NCBI GenBank assembly: GCA_041660165.1
Contig: JBAZWW010000001.1
Coordinates: 169,035-233,034 of the forward strand
Length of the DNA: 64,000 nt
Source of the DNA: Patescibacteria group bacterium
GTDB lineage: Bacteria > Patescibacteriota > Patescibacteriia > UBA9934
Reading direction: 5' to 3'
Shown: piece after piece, positions 32,983 through 63,650 of the stretch
How the letters are laid out: every line of letters starts with the position of its first letter
Numbering within the stretch: position 1 is the first letter of the stretch
Program-made: the position numbers and the translations under genes
Notes under the pieces: generated by a model
What the model saw: only the letters and a program-made list of their open reading frames with translations
Told to the model about the DNA's origin: nothing
The model's database searches: none

Positions 32983-33330
32983 ATGAATGGGTCACCACCG
33001 CCCGCCGACAGAGCGCAACTGCTCGCCGGCATGGACAGAGACATCGGCGCCGTAGCGTCCTTGGTCTGGAACAACCAGATCACTTGGGACACACTGATTG
33101 CGTTGCACGCCTCCGCACCACTCCCCGCAGGAAAGGGGTGGGCGCGGAAACAGCAAGAAGAGCGGTTGGCTCTGGCACTACGCAACCACCTGACCGAGCA
33201 GTTCGGCCAGGAAGCAACTTTTTCGAGCGTTGTCCTCGACACGCTCATCAATCACCTCTTCGACCGAGGACCCTTGATTGTGCTCGCGGAACTGAGAGCG
33301 GTCAGCGAGCCCAGCAAGATCCCGGCCTAG
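32983..33330 (+). CDS. hypothetical small protein
   Basis: GC-rich ORF in an otherwise gene-free gap. The opposite-strand ORF looks like low-complexity junk. Confidence 0.3.
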   Translation: MNGSPPPADRAQLLAGMDRDIGAVASLVWNNQITWDTLIALHASAPLPAGKGWARKQQEERLALALRNHLTEQFGQEATFSSVVLDTLINHLFDRGPLIVLAELRAVSEPSKIPA

Positions 33331-33441: not shown

Positions 33442-34656
33442 ATGCAATGCCCAAACCCTGAACGCTGTGGCTCCTGTGGCTGGTCCCACATCCCGTATGA
33501 AAAACAGCTCAAACAAAAGCTGTCAGACATAAACGGCTCTTTTGCCATCAAAAAACTTGATCTGCACGTGGATGAGATTTTGGCCTCGCCCATCACCCAC
33601 CACTACCGCAACCGCATGGATTTTGTAATTGACTGGCAGGGCAATGTTGGTCTGCGTGAAAAGGGCAAGTGGTGGAGCGTCATTGATAACCATCCGTGTT
33701 TCATTGCCGATCAGAAGATCGAGGACCATTTCTTCCTGGCTCGCCAGTGGGCCAAAACCTGCGGACTTTCTTTTTACGATCGCAAAGCAAACGTTGGCTT
33801 CTTGCGCTACGCGGTTATCCGCTCAACCTCGCTTGGTGAAACCATGGTCATTATTGTGACGAGTGCTCCAAAAGATGCTGATGAGGAAGCCAGCGCCAAG
33901 AAAGCGCTCGAGTCCCTCGCCGGAAGCTCGAAACCCACCACGCTCGTCTGGTCCATCAATCACACCATCAGCGACGTTTCTTTCGGCGACGAGCTGAGAG
34001 TAATTTCAGGTCCAGGCGTGATCGAGGAAACAATTGCCGGCTATCACTACAAGATTTCGCCCAACGCATTCTTCCAAACAAATCCGAAGGGCGCAGAAAT
34101 GTTGCTCGACACCGTGCGCGAATTTGCTACCACCACCCCCGGACCAGCATCAGACACAACCCTGCTCGATCTTTACTGCGGAACCGGCTTCTTTGCGGTT
34201 GCCCTCGCTCCATCCTTCAAACGAACAATCGGTGTTGAAATGGTGCCGGAAGCTATCAAAGACGCTCGCGTCAACGCTGAATTGAACGGGGCAACGGTCG
34301 AGTTCCACGATGCCAAAACTGAAGACTTCGACTGGAAATCCCTCGGCGCCGAAGTGGTAATTCTCGATCCTCCCCGTGGCGGAATGGTCGATAAGGCCCT
34401 CCAGGACGTCATCAAGGCGCGTCCGACAACAATCGTTTACGTCTCCTGCAACTACAAAAACTTTGCCCGCGAAATGGTCATTCTCCAGGCCTACTACTCC
34501 GTAGAAGCCATCAGGGCTATCGACATGTTCCCTCACACTCCCCACGTCGAGCTCGTCATAAAACTCGTCCGCCATCCCTCCGACCCCACCGCCCTCGACC
34601 CAGCGTCTGATACTGGCGAGCCGAGTGTCACGAAAAAGAAAGAGACGGCTGATTAA
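33442..34656 (+). CDS. RlmD/RumA-family 23S rRNA (uracil-C5)-methyltransferase
   Basis: N-terminal Cys cluster (CPNPERCGSCGW) and SAM-MTase motifs (LDLYCGTGFFAVALA, VILDPPRGG). Confidence 0.8.
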   Translation: MQCPNPERCGSCGWSHIPYEKQLKQKLSDINGSFAIKKLDLHVDEILASPITHHYRNRMDFVIDWQGNVGLREKGKWWSVIDNHPCFIADQKIEDHFFLARQWAKTCGLSFYDRKANVGFLRYAVIRSTSLGETMVIIVTSAPKDADEEASAKKALESLAGSSKPTTLVWSINHTISDVSFGDELRVISGPGVIEETIAGYHYKISPNAFFQTNPKGAEMLLDTVREFATTTPGPASDTTLLDLYCGTGFFAVALAPSFKRTIGVEMVPEAIKDARVNAELNGATVEFHDAKTEDFDWKSLGAEVVILDPPRGGMVDKALQDVIKARPTTIVYVSCNYKNFAREMVILQAYYSVEAIRAIDMFPHTPHVELVIKLVRHPSDPTALDPASDTGEPSVTKKKETAD

Positions 34657-34865
34657 GAACCCGTGCAAATAAAAAAAATTTCCGAAAAGCAAACAACCGG
34701 GCATAGGCCACGGTTGTGCGAAGTCCTCCGAAGAGGAACGTGGTGATGATTCGGTTGGGGATAGAACCCATATGCACTCGGCTTAAGCGCCTGATGCTCG
34801 AATCACCACCTGTTGCAGTTAAATGTGACCGCCTAGCACGGCCTTCAGGAAGCTGCGCGTTTTTC

Positions 34866-35305
34866 GGTTTTTTTTAATCCATCCCCCCAGCTAGGCCTTC
34901 GGTACGGGATGGTTTGCCTACTTTGTGGTCAATTACGACCACGTTCAGAGTTTCCTCGGTGGGCCCACCAAGTACGACTCTGTCACCAACAAATTCGTTC
35001 AGGCCGTTGGTGATTTTTTCCTTACCCCGGTTGTCACCCTCGAGCTCGGACACGCGTCAGGCACAGCCCGTCGCGCAATTGTAGCAGCGCTTCGATTATT
35101 GAGGGCCCCTTTACGGCTCCTCCTCGGCTCCGTTGACGACTCTTCGTCCGTTTGATGCTGGCGCGCTCAATTAGCCGCCATACCATCACCGGGCGTGACG
35201 TATGATCGATACCACCCATGATCTTGATGTCAGAGGGGCGATTCGACCATTTCAACTGACCGCTCAAACTCCGATAGCTTCGGGCAATCCCAGTACCATC
35301 GGACA
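34866..35305 (-). ncRNA. candidate structured noncoding RNA 1 (unidentified)
   Basis: Sigma70-like promoter on the minus strand (TTGACA, 17 nt, TATGCT at 35340-35312) inside the CCGGCTTGACAGAAGCCGG palindrome. No credible ORF or RBS; the 3' end is uncertain. Confidence 0.25.
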
Positions 35306-35410
35306 AAGAGTAGCATAGCAAAAATTCCGGCTTCTGTCAAGCCGGGGAAGCTGAAACGAGGCTATGACTAGCTATAAAGGAGCAATAGGCTATAAAGCCT
35401 AAAAACGAAT

Positions 35411-35896
35411 AATGACCGAGAAGCTTGCGCTACTCGGTCATTACGTTTTACGTGATTCGCACTGCGAGTACTCTATGGCTTTTGGCCAGAATGCTTCGCA
35501 GTCGAACTGTGAGATGTATGCGTCGGTCGCTTGACCGATACAGGCTGTGAAAGCCATACCCCCGTGAGGGCGCAATGCGGGGGCCTGTGGAACACCCCGG
35601 TTCGATTCGTTCACTCCCTAGTGTTTTCACATTCCCCCAAGCCATCTCAGCCGGGGATCCACAACACTTTGGAGCGAGTTCCCGATCACCCGAGCAGTCT
35701 TTTCGGTGCAGCGGTATCGGGCCCGCGCACCTATCCCTGTTTCGTGACGTGTTGTTGAGACACGTTTGTTACGCCGGGCAGTTCGCGCGACAATTGGCAT
35801 TTAACGTCTGTACCTGTCCGCAGAGCTTGTTACAGCTTGCTTCAGGACTGCCTAATGACAGACGGTCACGACATAGCTTTCGCTACTCCGAGACGA
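35411..35896 (-). ncRNA. candidate structured noncoding RNA 2 (unidentified)
   Basis: Minus-strand promoter (TTGACA, 17 nt, TAGATT at ~35930-35902) inside a second copy of the CCGGCTTGACAAAAGCCGG palindrome. Ends at the strong hairpin + U-run terminator AATGACCGAG...CTCGGTCATT at 35411-35450. Confidence 0.28.
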
Positions 35897-36023
35897 AAAG
35901 TAATCTACCAACAACTCCGGCTTTTGTCAAGCCGGAAAGGCCATAAATTGGCTAATATCCTTGACTTTATTAGAAAAGTCATATAGTCTTCCTAAGCGAG
36001 TTTCACGCTACCGGAGGACAAAA

Positions 36024-36710
36024 ATGATCAGTCTGACGTTCCTTTCCTTGAGTGCCCTGGCCGGCGGAGGCGGAATCAAGTGGGCGGATCTGGGCGATTC
36101 CTGCCTGGGCCCATCCCCCTTCACCCCGAACTCGGGCGCATGCTGTGAACCCATGCTCCGTGCGGACTTCATGTCTGCCCGTTGCGTGAATGTCCCTGCG
36201 CTCCTCTCGGACATTGAGGACAACGCGTTCATCCAGATGAACGTCGGGGGCAAGGTGCGAATCTACTGGGTGAAGGACGGCGAACGCCATCTCATCCCTG
36301 ACAAGAGCACCGCCGAGAGCTGGTTCTCGGACCGCGGGAACGAGCTGTGCGAGCAGGTCTACAGCGTCCCCGCCTTGCTCGGCGAAACCACTCCGGAAGG
36401 TAACCACGTCACGCTCCGGCCCGGCAGTGGGATCATCAAGATCTCGTCCGAAGCCAAGCTGTATGTGGTCGAAGAACCGTCAATCCTCCGACGGATCACC
36501 TACGCGCAGGCAGAGGACATCTACGGGCCGTCCTGGATCCTGTACGTCCGAACTGTGAACGACTTCACGTTCTTGGACTACTGCATCGGACCAGACCTCA
36601 TGGCCGGCGAGCCGTACGACTGGCAGACCGTGTCGGACGGCGCCATGCTCTCTGACGCCGTCGGAGTGCCGATCTGTCCGCGCGCTGACAGAAACGAATC
36701 GTTACCGTAG
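36024..36710 (+). CDS. hypothetical secreted cysteine-rich protein
   Basis: GGAGGA SD before the ATG, signal peptide MISLTFLSLSALAGGGG, and 10 Cys residues. Confidence 0.45.
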   Translation: MISLTFLSLSALAGGGGIKWADLGDSCLGPSPFTPNSGACCEPMLRADFMSARCVNVPALLSDIEDNAFIQMNVGGKVRIYWVKDGERHLIPDKSTAESWFSDRGNELCEQVYSVPALLGETTPEGNHVTLRPGSGIIKISSEAKLYVVEEPSILRRITYAQAEDIYGPSWILYVRTVNDFTFLDYCIGPDLMAGEPYDWQTVSDGAMLSDAVGVPICPRADRNESLP

Positions 36711-36736
36711 AACGGCCGCGCGCCGATCTTGCGAAT

Positions 36737-36770
36737 ATAAAACCCGAGACCTCCTGTCTCGGGTTTGCTG
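36737..36770. terminator. bidirectional intrinsic terminator
   Basis: AAACCCGAGAC-ctcct-GTCTCGGGTTT hairpin flanked by A/T runs, sitting between convergent genes. Confidence 0.6.
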
Positions 36771-36780
36771 TTTCTATAAA

Positions 36781-37641
36781 CTATTTCCCAAATCTTCTCT
36801 GTCTCGCCTGGAACGAACGCAACGCTCGCAGAAAATCAATTCGCCGAAAGGCCGGCCAATTCACGTCGAGAAAATAATACTCGCTGTACGCCGCCTGCCA
36901 AAGGAGGAAGCCGGAGAGACGAACCTCGCCGGACGTACGAATGATGAAATCGGGATCGGGGACATTGCAGGAATAAAGATTGGCCGAGAGTGACTCCTCG
37001 GTCAAACCATTAACCGCCTCGCCGAAAGACTTCCCTGACTGTTCAGCACTCGTCAGATACGCTTTGGCTGCATCCACGATCTCCTCGCGACCGCCGTACC
37101 CAAGAGCGAGCTGGACGAGCATGCCTTTTCTCTCGGCGGTAGTTGTTTCAAGTTCGGCAAGTGCTCGTTGTACTTCTTCGGGCATCTGCTCGGTCCGGCC
37201 AATCACCTTCACACGAATGTCGTGCTTCTTGAAATCCTCGTCCAACATCATGGCCTTGGCTTGCTCGACAATTATATCCATCAGCGCTTTCACCTCAGAC
37301 GGCTCGCGCGAAAAATTCTGCGTGCTGAAACCCCAGACAGTAACCACGGGAATCTTAAATTCGATACACCACGAAAAAAGCTGTTTCACTTTCTTCGCCC
37401 CGTATTTATGGCCCTCGACAATTGGCAGACCAAGAGACTTGGCGTATCGCCTGTTGCCGTCAAGAATTACGCCGAGATGCCGTGGCGCAGGACCAAGCAA
37501 CAATTTCTGTGCCAGCCGACGCTCGTACACCTCGTACAAGATTCTTTTAACAATTGCTTTGGGAATATTTTTCATAAATGCACCATAAACGCGAAAGGGT
37601 CGAGACATGGCTCGACCCCTACGCCAAACATCCTTACACAT
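36781..37641 (-). CDS. uppS: isoprenyl transferase (undecaprenyl diphosphate synthase)
   Basis: HLGVILDGNRRYAKSLG and IIRTSGEVRLSGFLLWQAAYSEYYF motifs. Confidence 0.85.
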   Translation of the reverse strand: MCKDVWRRGRAMSRPFRVYGAFMKNIPKAIVKRILYEVYERRLAQKLLLGPAPRHLGVILDGNRRYAKSLGLPIVEGHKYGAKKVKQLFSWCIEFKIPVVTVWGFSTQNFSREPSEVKALMDIIVEQAKAMMLDEDFKKHDIRVKVIGRTEQMPEEVQRALAELETTTAERKGMLVQLALGYGGREEIVDAAKAYLTSAEQSGKSFGEAVNGLTEESLSANLYSCNVPDPDFIIRTSGEVRLSGFLLWQAAYSEYYFLDVNWPAFRRIDFLRALRSFQARQRRFGK

Positions 37642-56096: not shown

Positions 56097-56525
56097 CTAA
56101 TCAGAGCGCGGATACGTTCCGTCGCTGATCTTCTTCGCAAAAGAACCGTGCACCATACGGAAGGCCAAACGGTTCTCAGGTGCGTAAACCATCGGGATAC
56201 CGATACGCGCGTGGCACTTCGGACACTCCAAATTCGGAACATCGCGGATGCTACAACACGTATACTGAAGAGTCGCAAGCGCGGACGGAGCGAAGACCCG
56301 ATCGAGGTACATCCGCAAGAGCGCTCCTGGACCATCCTTCTGATAGAGCGCGACGTGCTCCCCGCATGCGCTGCAAAACACGTCAAGAAAACGTGAATTA
56401 CCGCCACGCGCCCTCGAATAACGGTCCTTCTTGAAAGCGTGCTTGCTGTCAGGCTGTTCATTCGACATAGCCTCTCCTTTGTTCATTTCAACAAAATTGT
56501 CAATGAACTGACCAAAAACTAGCAT
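56097..56525 (-). CDS. zinc-ribbon protein (two CxxC pairs), unknown function
   Basis: CSACG...CPKCH; has a paralog immediately upstream. Confidence 0.5.
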   Translation of the reverse strand: MLVFGQFIDNFVEMNKGEAMSNEQPDSKHAFKKDRYSRARGGNSRFLDVFCSACGEHVALYQKDGPGALLRMYLDRVFAPSALATLQYTCCSIRDVPNLECPKCHARIGIPMVYAPENRLAFRMVHGSFAKKISDGTYPRSD

Positions 56526-56587
56526 TTTTTTTGTGAATTACGCAAGTATCAGTGTCCCTGAAAACATTGGCCTTAAGCAACGATTCT

Positions 56588-56920
56588 TTATCGCCGAGGC
56601 GACGGGTATACCCCAGTACCCACCCTTTTAACTACTGACCCCTGATAGAGACGAATAGCGGGACGCTTTTCTTTCTGGTAAATATAAAACGTCCCGATCA
56701 CTTTTTCGCACTATGGACATACGAATTCACCTTTTGAAGACCGCGAAATAGACGGGGCACAAATACGATCCAAATAAAGACGCCTTAATTCACCCGGCCC
56801 GTCCTTCTGATAAAGAACGAGGTATCCCCCACAACTTTCACAAAAAACATTTAAGAACCGCGAATAATGTCCTCTCTTTTCTCTATAAACGTCCTTCTTC
56901 AGGATAAATTGCTTAGGCAT
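56588..56920 (-). pseudogene. paralog of the 56097 zinc-ribbon gene carrying an in-frame TAG
   Basis: The two copies align along the full length (SRFLNVFCESCGGYLVLYQKDGPGELRRLYLDRICAPS ... CP*CEKVIGTFYIYQKEKRPAIRLYQGSVVKRVGTGVYPSPRR). The amber codon at 56711-56713 replaces the Lys of CPKC. Confidence 0.5.
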
Positions 56921-57137
56921 ATAACTGTTTGATTCTAGAATCTGATTCTACAGTAAATTGATAAACCAGTGAAGACACTCCCCAACGTTTCGCCAATCGA
57001 AAACCCGCCTTCATTGCTGGATGCGGACTTTCTTAGTCACCCCCTATTCCAGTCTGTAGAAACCACAAAGGTCCTTCGACTCGGCTGGGTAACCTCGTTC
57101 AGGACAAAATAATTCCACCGCTAGGGTGGAATTATTT

Positions 57138-57211
57138 TGGTTCCGAGACATGGATTCGAACCATGATTAGAGGATTCAGAGTCCTCTGTCCTGCCGTTAG
57201 ACGATCTCGGA
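57138..57211 (-). tRNA. tRNA-Gln (anticodon CUG)
   Basis: Hand-folded: acceptor TCCGAGA/TCTCGGA, anticodon stem GAGGA/TCCTC with loop CTCTGAA, T-loop TTCGAAT, CCA encoded. Upstream minus-strand TTGACA-17-TATTCT promoter and a downstream AATTCCACC...GGTGGAATT terminator. Confidence 0.85.
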
Positions 57212-63350: not shown

Positions 63351-63385
63351 GGGCAGGCATTGACAAAAACTCCCCTTTCTGGTAT
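63351..63385 (+). promoter_or_regulatory. near-consensus sigma70 promoter
   Basis: TTGACA aaaactcccctttctgg TATACT: consensus -35, a 17-nt spacer and a near-consensus -10. Confidence 0.5.
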
Positions 63386-63391
63386 ACTAAT

Positions 63392-63650
63392 CACTTCTTG
63401 AATACGTGACTTTTTCCAAAAAGCCAGTCGTTTCAGAGGTTTCTTCAGCGCTACAGCTTGTTACGCAGTAGAAAGGCACGCACCGGTATTCACTGCGCAA
63501 AGACTCACGTCCCGCGCGCAGGCATAAGCATACTATCTAAACCCCCATTCTCGCTTGAAACGTCTAGACGTTTCTTGTCTTGATCAGGGTTAAGTGCCAC
63601 ATCAAAAACCCGCCGTTGTCCCTTCATGGGCTCTGCGGGATTTTTGTTTC
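63392..63650 (+). ncRNA. candidate small noncoding RNA (~250 nt), unidentified
   Basis: Promoter at 63351-63385 and an intrinsic terminator CCCGC...GCGGGATTTTTGTTT at about 63600-63650. No ORF of any size with an RBS. Confidence 0.3.

Follow-up and report, generated by a model that had tools for sequence, protein, structure and literature searches.

Two tandem units between uppS and rumA in a Candidatus Uhrbacteria genome as candidate genes of a mosaic family of structured noncoding RNAs

A 64-kb stretch of DNA (hereafter the window, with all coordinates counted from its position 1) from a metagenome-assembled genome (MAG), assigned by its flanking proteins to Candidatus Uhrbacteria (Candidate Phyla Radiation [CPR]/Patescibacteria), contains an island poor in open reading frames (ORFs) at 34657–36023, raising the question of what, if anything, the island encodes. 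No gene was called there in the ENA or the Logan assembly (independent assemblies of the same genome), its sequence was identical in two samples, only short ORFs lie between the flanking genes at 33442–34656 (+) and 36024–36710 (+), and neither a Pfam search of the island ORFs nor a PHROGs search of the longest of them gave a match. Analysis of the sequence and of its relatives points to two paralogous, independently transcribed genes for structured noncoding RNAs (ncRNAs), here called units A and B, belonging to a family so far found only in a sub-clade of Candidatus Uhrbacteria; we put the probability of this reading at roughly 60%. An orphan structured ncRNA gene is a known kind of element, and the locus is best described as a case of that kind in which the family, its mosaic behavior and the CPR setting are new. 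The alternatives weighed below are, in our order of likelihood, an accessory cassette, an mRNA or dual-function RNA for a small protein, drifting transcription units and a diverged housekeeping RNA.

Each unit is delimited by signals on the minus strand. The palindrome CCGGCTTNTGTCAAGCCGG occurs exactly twice in the window (35327–35345 and 35917–35935; chance expectation, 0.10), and the loop of each copy carries TTGACA, followed at 17 nt by TATGCT or TAGATT with a TG extended −10. Both promoters had been proposed in a first-pass annotation made from the sequence, which also counted two palindromes (placing the second at 35908–35930); the extended −10 is added here. Across both strands of the whole window, the pattern TTGAC[AG]-N14-TGn-TAnnnT has three matches, two of which are the promoters of A and B, and the two promoter regions are direct repeats of each other over 63 nt, with 71% identity and at a distance of 590 nt. 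The unit A promoter has an upstream half-palindrome (GATATTAGCC, 35959–35950), a hairpin (35937–35915) with the −35 box in its loop and a TGG extended −10 (35910–35908). That of unit B has the palindrome GCTAGTCATAGC (35372–35361) and a hairpin (35345–35327), again with the −35 box in its loop, followed by a T-run; this hairpin and T-run also look like an additional terminator of unit A. Unit A no longer has a same-strand gene ahead of it, and its own T-run has decayed. The first-pass annotation was right that two tandem minus-strand units lie here, each with a promoter and a terminator, and that a strong terminator with a U-run lies near 35411–35450 (stem, 35443–35410), but this terminator ends the upstream unit A rather than the downstream unit, and the terminator of unit B (34717–34693) had been missed. 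The latter abuts the 3′ end of rumA, in the same place as the terminators of the relatives’ units. From the positions of these signals, transcripts of ∼497 nt (A) and ∼630 nt (B) are predicted. Each unit would start at a near-consensus sigma-70 promoter (TTGACA, 17 nt, TGn-TAnnnT) and end at a Rho-independent terminator just ahead of the convergent rumA.

The third consensus extended −10 promoter of the window (TTGACA-N14-TGG-TATACT, at 63360–63388 on the plus strand) is followed by ∼255 nt without an ORF and then by a hairpin and T-run (∼63611–63650). The transcript predicted from 63360–63650 (+) begins AAUCACUUCUUGAAU, and a stretch within it, CCCCCAUUCUCGCUUGAAACG, is reminiscent of the lead of the M3 module described below; the transcript had no Rfam match at an E value of ≤10 and a folding z-score of only −1.65, and it may be another small RNA gene. 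A tRNA-Gln gene (57138–57211, minus strand) also has a promoter with a 17-nt spacer (TTGACA-17-TATTCT, 57260–57232) and is followed by ∼600 nt without a long ORF (56525–57138, minus strand), in which Rfam gives nothing besides the tRNA.

To evaluate whether such units recur, loci of relatives (denoted by L and a number) were collected with rumA and uppS as anchors, some of which were counted together (L001 = L099; L087 = L086/L109/L110; L105 = L106/L107). A unit composed of promoter, body and terminator was found in L001, L002, L003, L004, L006, L083, L084, L085, L087, L098, L105 and L108, and two tandem units were found in L100, giving a total of 16 units in 14 lineages with the two of the window included. 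Almost all are located between the stop codon of uppS and the end of rumA, on the same strand as uppS, and their lengths range from 250 to 660 nt. Fourteen share a −35 box TTGAC(A/G), a spacer of 17 nt with a T-tract at its end, TGn and a −10 box TAnnnT (L006 has the same layout), and in those 14 an upstream palindrome resembling GCTAATATTAGC overlaps the uppS stop codon. Where a unit directly follows uppS, the −35 hairpin and the T-tract form the intrinsic terminator of uppS; the palindrome thus serves as terminator and promoter in one. Protein genes elsewhere in the relatives are driven by strong promoters of a similar kind, so the promoter type is not specific to RNA genes. Many third-party MAG records of close relatives (L001, L007, L008, L012 and others) are titled “uncultured Gammaproteobacteria bacterium,” an evident labeling error. 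Among 80 rumA loci, other gaps downstream of rumA mostly hold small genes or unrelated repeats, L006 with its unit being the exception. Gaps outside the family in other Uhrbacteria (L014, 7167–7951; L019, 7170–7471; L040, 7128–7612) contain short repeats or palindromes, such as GAGGTTGAACCTCGAGGTTCAACCTCG in L040 and a repeated AAGCTAAGCTT in L019.

Outside the promoter, the sequences of the units turn over far faster than the flanking genes, and whole units are nearly unalignable even where RumA and UppS are 85% identical; blastn and nhmmer searches with whole units against the 80 rumA loci returned almost nothing. What persists is a small set of hairpins, and the bodies are mosaics of a few conserved modules (M3, H1 and M5) in rapidly changing structured sequence. 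M3 is an irregular hairpin of ∼75 nt with UUCG and CGAA at its base, followed by a bulged G and a variable helix and topped by a tip of the form YUC-UGRC-tetraloop-GYCA-UU-GAG, and it is present in 9 of the 16 units, unit A among them. In an alignment of these nine sequences, 91.4% of cells were paired (25 to 42% with partners slid), and double compensatory changes occurred in 11 of 21 pairs (1 to 4 in the slid controls); the observed values were reached by none of 500 shuffles. H1 (ACGUGU-loop-ACRCGU) is invariant in sequence across the units that bear it. The window has a single instance of its pattern (chance expectation, 0.07), and a search of the window together with ∼1 Mb of related loci found it only inside units (unit A, L001, L003, L006, L083, L087 and L098), on the 5′ side of M3 in unit A and L087 and on the 3′ side in L003 and L083. 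M5 is shared by the RNAs of unit B and L002 with 89% identity over 35 nt, the two being otherwise unalignable, and direct reading of the sequences shows one compensatory change in its outer stem. In L002, the closest single-copy relative, M5 and M3 lie within one RNA; in the window, M5 is found only in B and H1 and M3 only in A, which fits a duplication followed by partition of the modules. A consistent long-range partner for the conserved CAUYUCAC lead was not found across the units.

Folding of the bodies is also strand specific. With terminators removed, the minimum free energy (MFE) z-scores of the sense strand lay between −2.4 and −5.8 in 13 of 15 units, and the sense strand was more negative than the antisense strand in 13 of 15. 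Unit A scored −5.0 with its terminator and −3.0 without it, and unit B −5.45 and −4.7, respectively (antisense, −1.9); the MFE structures of both are multi-branched. Predicted hairpins contained 26 GNRA or YNCG tetraloops on the sense strand, compared to 3.4 after dinucleotide shuffling and 5 on the antisense strand (an ∼8-fold excess). The most common loops across the 15 units were GAAA, GCAA, CUCG, UUCG and UACG, and no recurrent loop motif was shared by their predicted hairpins, for which reason a CsrB/RsmZ-type sponge with repeated GGA loops was rejected. A CCATCCC/GGGATGG hairpin named in the first-pass annotation exists in unit B, although at 34912–34879 rather than 34861–34893. In the U-rich 3′ tail of unit A (CGUUUUUAGGCUUU, 35394–35407), 12 of 14 positions could pair with the A-rich linker of unit B (AAAACCGAAAAACG, 34858–34871); this may be a fortuitous match between a U-run and an A-run, or a contact between A and B.

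These features bear on whether the bodies matter at all. If only the hairpin were functional, as terminator of uppS or as an insulator between uppS and rumA, the units would be nonfunctional or decaying transcription units whose bodies drift neutrally. Conservation is by far the highest in the promoter region, the bodies can hardly be aligned, the L084 unit has lost M3 and shows no excess folding, and some relatives have lost the unit altogether, all as such drift would have it. However, drift would not keep bodies of 250 to 650 nt with sense-specific z-scores of −3 to −6, an 8-fold excess of tetraloops on the sense strand only, compensatory changes in M3 or islands of near identity of 19 to 35 nt (H1 and M5), and a terminator of uppS needs no consensus extended −10 promoter after it. 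We consider neutral drift of the bodies improbable.

An RNA with its own promoter might instead be a message. Codon usage was scored for island ORFs of ≥40 codons against a table derived from 28 long window genes. They scored as noncoding, including the longest (123 codons, −0.18), with two exceptions: a 59-codon ORF on the minus strand of unit B (35053–34874, +0.36) and its antisense partner. The claim of the first-pass annotation that the island is protein free stands as far as called genes and Pfam matches go, with this ORF and its gene-like codon usage as a caveat; the argument that no ORF there has a ribosome-binding site is unusable, because most genes of the window lack a Shine-Dalgarno motif (present in 5 of 35). 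Several window genes have a −10-like box (TATAAT, TATAGT or CATAAT) 6 to 14 nt ahead of the ATG, which suggests that leaderless or non-Shine-Dalgarno initiation is the rule in the host. Unit B, or both units, could accordingly be read as an mRNA or a dual-function RNA for a small protein such as the 59-residue product of this ORF, whose score is on par with that of real genes and for which the missing Shine-Dalgarno motif is no argument either way. A single high-scoring ORF is nonetheless unsurprising, because ∼50 ORFs were scored. The ORF starts with GTG (32 of 35 window genes start with ATG) inside the GC-rich M5 hairpin and crosses four perfect hairpins, and its counterpart in L002 has just 35 codons and a score of −0.06. 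A word search of 5.8 billion proteins found no homologue, Pfam and PHROGs gave no match, and an exhaustive HMMER search gave only two weak matches, to long repeat proteins in both cases. When all units were compared in six frames, no frame-specific conservation of peptides emerged: similarity appears on both strands and in several frames simultaneously, indicating conservation of nucleotides and not of peptides. Neither a conserved frame nor database homologues, the marks of a small-protein gene, were found for the units. The ORF is probably not translated, and we regard a coding function as quite unlikely.

Another option is that one or both units are highly divergent versions of RNase P RNA, tmRNA, signal recognition particle (SRP) RNA or 6S RNA that escape the standard models. 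Of 35 RNase P RNAs from CPR genomes, 10 fell under Rfam thresholds and needed manual refolding (PMC8172020), and it is because of this report that we took the possibility seriously. The units also have promoters of the stable-RNA type, and none of these four RNAs was found elsewhere in the 64-kb window by an Rfam scan at gathering score; the genes can lie outside it, since the window is only about a quarter of its contig. The first-pass annotation, which had itself matched neither transcript to any of the four RNAs, left divergent housekeeping ncRNAs and novel large structured RNAs side by side as explanations and called for an Rfam scan and a search for conservation in relatives. With Rfam 15, the whole window at gathering score and the island at an E value of ≤10 yielded two tRNAs and a chance snoRNA match only, and ARAGORN found the same number of tRNAs and no tmRNA in the window. 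Twelve homologous loci at gathering score (seven of them also at an E value of ≤5) gave tRNAs and terminator-like noise only. No covariance-model match to RNase P RNA (RF00010/RF00011) was obtained at an E value of ≤10 in 34500–36100, nor in the 12 homologous loci. SRP RNA had no match in the island at an E value of ≤10, and 6S RNA (RF00013) had none in the units, its model being known to miss divergent members. P4 strands (resembling GGAAAGUCC and ACAGAAcccGGCUUA), which in RNase P RNA have the specificity and catalytic domains between them, were not found on the transcribed strand; partial matches to them are confined to 34722 and 34754–34786 of the plus strand, 35 nt apart and antisense to unit B. 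The P4-like AGAACCC..GGCTTA and the T-loop-like GGTTCGATTC of the first-pass annotation likewise fall on the plus strand, opposite to the units, and have no support from any model. Diverged CPR RNase P RNAs are still recovered by RF00010 at lowered thresholds, with their conserved core kept (PMC8172020); the units differ from one another in module content between tandem copies, turn over fast, span 250 to 660 nt and have no common core. The site is also empty in L005, L102/L103 (UppS 85% identical), L104 and the contig P0010, with UppS identities of 66 to 85% among such relatives, and doubled in the window and L100, a pattern seen at the level of the locus. Because of the missing Rfam and ARAGORN matches, the empty sites and the tandem duplication, we consider it very improbable that the units are divergent RNase P, tmRNA, SRP or 6S RNAs. 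The scans assigned no housekeeping family, and the search of relatives brought the units to 16, with covariation in M3. The alternative of novel large structured RNAs gains support from the architecture shared by the 16 units, the M3 covariation, the sense-specific folding and tetraloops and the lack of an Rfam family.

The same patchiness raises the question of whether the units are accessory or conflict RNA cassettes (anti-phage, symbiosis related or selfish) that are gained, lost, duplicated and recombined at an intergenic hot spot under diversifying selection. Empty and occupied sites are interleaved among close relatives, the order of modules varies by lineage (H1 5′ or 3′ of M3), turnover is much faster than that of the flanking genes, and a foreign-looking gene (36024–36710) is inserted beside unit A. 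Tandem duplication arose twice, in the window and independently in L100 (3315–4372, plus strand), where both copies (316 and 658 nt) have M3 and a near-identical 3′ end and terminator and differ in their 5′ parts. Yet no integrase, transposase, reverse transcriptase, toxin or defense gene is linked to the units in any locus, no terminal repeats or target-site duplications were seen, and the position between uppS and rumA is fixed. Searches of phages and plasmids by blastn with the units gave no match, and when viral contigs were scanned for a 17-mer, H1 and a degenerate M3 tip, only chance matches turned up (checked by eye and by covariance model). Cassettes of this kind strike us as an unlikely explanation.

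Several observations weigh against two structured ncRNA genes as well. M3 is missing from 7 of the 16 units, unit B included, and its covariation comes from nine related sequences; the L084 unit lacks both M3 and excess folding. Whole-unit alignments with MAFFT were of no use beyond the modules, and no global consensus structure came out of them. Complements of the CAUYUCAC lead, taken as a seed, were not enriched near start codons in the window. The codon-usage score of the 59-codon ORF was reached by none of 130 shadow ORFs. The ends of the transcripts are predicted from sequence, and a family so narrow and patchy fits a dispensable element as well as a useful one. Nonetheless, the units have what a free-standing structured ncRNA gene generally has, namely their own promoter and intrinsic terminator on one strand and no conserved ORF, with compensatory changes demonstrable for M3 only and not for the whole RNA.

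Comparison with known systems places the units near several of these without matching any. Diverged CPR RNase P RNA (Lui et al. 2021, PMC8172020) comes from the same organism group and also falls below standard Rfam thresholds, but the units have no RF00010 signal at an E value of ≤10 and no P4 on the sense strand, and their locus is dispensable and their gene duplicated. OLE, ROOL, GOLLD and raiA (RF01071, RF03087, RF01998 and RF03072) are, like the units, several hundred nucleotides long, free-standing and untranslated, with many tetraloop-capped helices, a restriction to certain lineages and no biochemistry known at discovery. OLE adjoins isoprenoid-pathway genes, and the units here adjoin uppS. 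No match was obtained with the OLE, ROOL, GOLLD, HEARO and raiA covariance models, and whereas OLE, ROOL, GOLLD and raiA keep a global architecture across many genera, the units keep short modules only, within a very narrow clade in which copies are freely duplicated and lost. Tandem paralogous small RNA genes (PrrF1/PrrF2, OmrA/OmrB, the RsmX copies and Qrr1-5) encode RNAs of 80 to 150 nt that act through a short seed or repeated GGA loops. They too are head-to-tail copies, each with its own promoter and Rho-independent terminator, and in both cases the promoter region, with an upstream palindrome, is better conserved than the body and duplication recurs; however, the units are 250 to 660 nt long, have no repeated loop motif and show no enrichment of complements at starts in the window. 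RNAs of the 6S/Ms1 type are strongly transcribed (as is predicted for the units), stable, fast evolving and hard to find by sequence, but 6S RNA is a rod of ∼180 nt with a central bubble, and the units, 1.5 to 3.5 times longer, have multi-branched predicted structures. In L108, a string resembling the hammerhead was rejected (core mismatch and only 21 bits).

Several units begin ACUCUUUGU or ACUUUUUGU, with a CUCUUU core as in BoxA, a motif that shields long untranslated RNAs from Rho (PMC7665894) and has the gammaproteobacterial consensus GYTCTTTAANA (PMC5725501). Transcripts led by BoxA, such as rRNA operons and CRISPR arrays, are likewise long untranslated RNAs in need of protection from Rho. 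The likeness is a resemblance only, as the consensus is gammaproteobacterial and may not be that of Uhrbacteria, and the motif is not universal among the units (it is missing from L087, L098 and L108, among others).

If units A and B are indeed structured RNA genes, they would most likely encode stable trans-acting scaffold or protein-binding RNAs. Such RNAs would be abundant and stable and would act in trans, with the invariant bulged hairpins serving to dock one or more proteins or to make tertiary or quaternary contacts and the variable tetraloop-capped helices as scaffold; A and B might divide between them the modules and functions of one ancestral single RNA. A long shot that goes further is that these would be “ornate” mosaic RNAs, specific to CPR and fast evolving, that assemble into a higher-order particle (RNA only or ribonucleoprotein), of which A and B would be two subunits splitting the ancestral modules, with the self-complementary CGAGCUCG of M5 and the invariant hairpins H1 and M3 as interfaces for assembly or docking. 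If true, such a particle would be a major, so far unseen cellular component in an organism with a genome of ∼1 Mb.

The surroundings of the units (Table 1) follow the local gene order era, a UPF0259-type membrane protein gene, uppS, island, rumA (convergent) and a SpoU methylase gene. In the window, an extra gene (36024–36710, plus strand, 228 codons) separates uppS from unit A. It is missing from the uppS-rumA interval of every relative examined and therefore looks like a recent insertion. Its product has a signal-peptide-like N terminus, Pfam and PHROGs searches gave no match, and it is one of the five window genes with a Shine-Dalgarno motif (a strong GGAGG); the GC content of 0.586 at 36001–37000, around this gene, is the highest among the 1-kb bins of the composition profile. 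A promoter-like site of this gene (TTGACT..TATAGT, ∼35963–35991) is divergent from the unit A promoter. On the other side, a small ORF (32983–33330, plus strand, 115 codons) between the SpoU methylase gene and rumA has no Pfam match and is conserved, being called as a gene in several relatives too (97 to 115 residues).

Table 1. Coordinates in the window of the island, the predicted units and their parts, and the neighboring genes
Feature	Coordinates	Strand	Remarks
ORF-poor island	34657–36023		between rumA-like gene and inserted small gene
Unit A promoter	35902–35960	−	−35 TTGACA 35930–35925; −10 TAGATT 35907–35902
Unit A transcript (predicted, ∼497 nt)	35399–35895	−	promoter and terminator on one strand
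Unit A 5′ stem-loop, UAGC-GAAA-GCUA	35874–35885	−	
Unit A H1 hairpin, ACGUGU-loop-ACACGU	35747–35765	−	
Unit A segment UCGGGUGAUCGGGAAC	35678–35693	−	common to L083 unit
Unit A M3 module, long bulged hairpin	35445–35521	−	covariance model R1, 71 bits, E 5e-15
Unit A intrinsic terminator	35399–35443	−	stem 35443–35410, U-tract to 35399; −25.2 kcal/mol
Unit B promoter	35312–35372	−	−35 TTGACA 35340–35335; TGC 35320–35318; −10 TATGCT 35317–35312
Unit B transcript (predicted, ∼620–635 nt)	34670–35305	−	
Unit B 5′ stem-loop	35271–35302	−	
Unit B M5 module, GGGCUGUGCC..CGCGUGUCCGAGCUCGAG	35039–35069	−	common to L002 unit
59-codon ORF (GTG start) inside unit B	34874–35053	−	codon-usage score 0.36
Unit B hairpin, CCAUCCC...GGGAUGG	34879–34912	−	
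Unit B A-rich single-stranded linker	34858–34875	−	
Unit B 3′ domain, closing 12-bp helix GGUGGUGAUUCG/CGAAUCAUCACC	34742–34810	−	
Unit B intrinsic terminator	34670–34717	−	stem 34717–34693, U-rich tail to ∼34670; −16 kcal/mol
rumA-like RNA m5U methyltransferase gene	33442–34656	+	PF05958; convergent with units
uppS	36781–37608	−	in relatives, unit promoter ≤∼30 nt after its stop codon

Within the searchable literature, we found no paper describing a non-housekeeping RNA in CPR/Patescibacteria and none describing an RNA like these units. Genomes of CPR/Patescibacteria are very small and gene dense, and ∼1.3 kb given to two RNAs, with two of only three consensus extended −10 promoters in 64 kb, suggests a heavy investment in RNA. 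M3, supported by covariation, and the sequence-invariant H1 and M5 are possible baits for partners and possible search models across Uhrbacteria. Should the RNAs prove to be dispensable local elements, their interest would be mainly evolutionary: the family offers a compact case of RNA gene evolution in which modules are kept while their order and spacers change, with repeated tandem duplication and an apparent partition of modules between paralogues.

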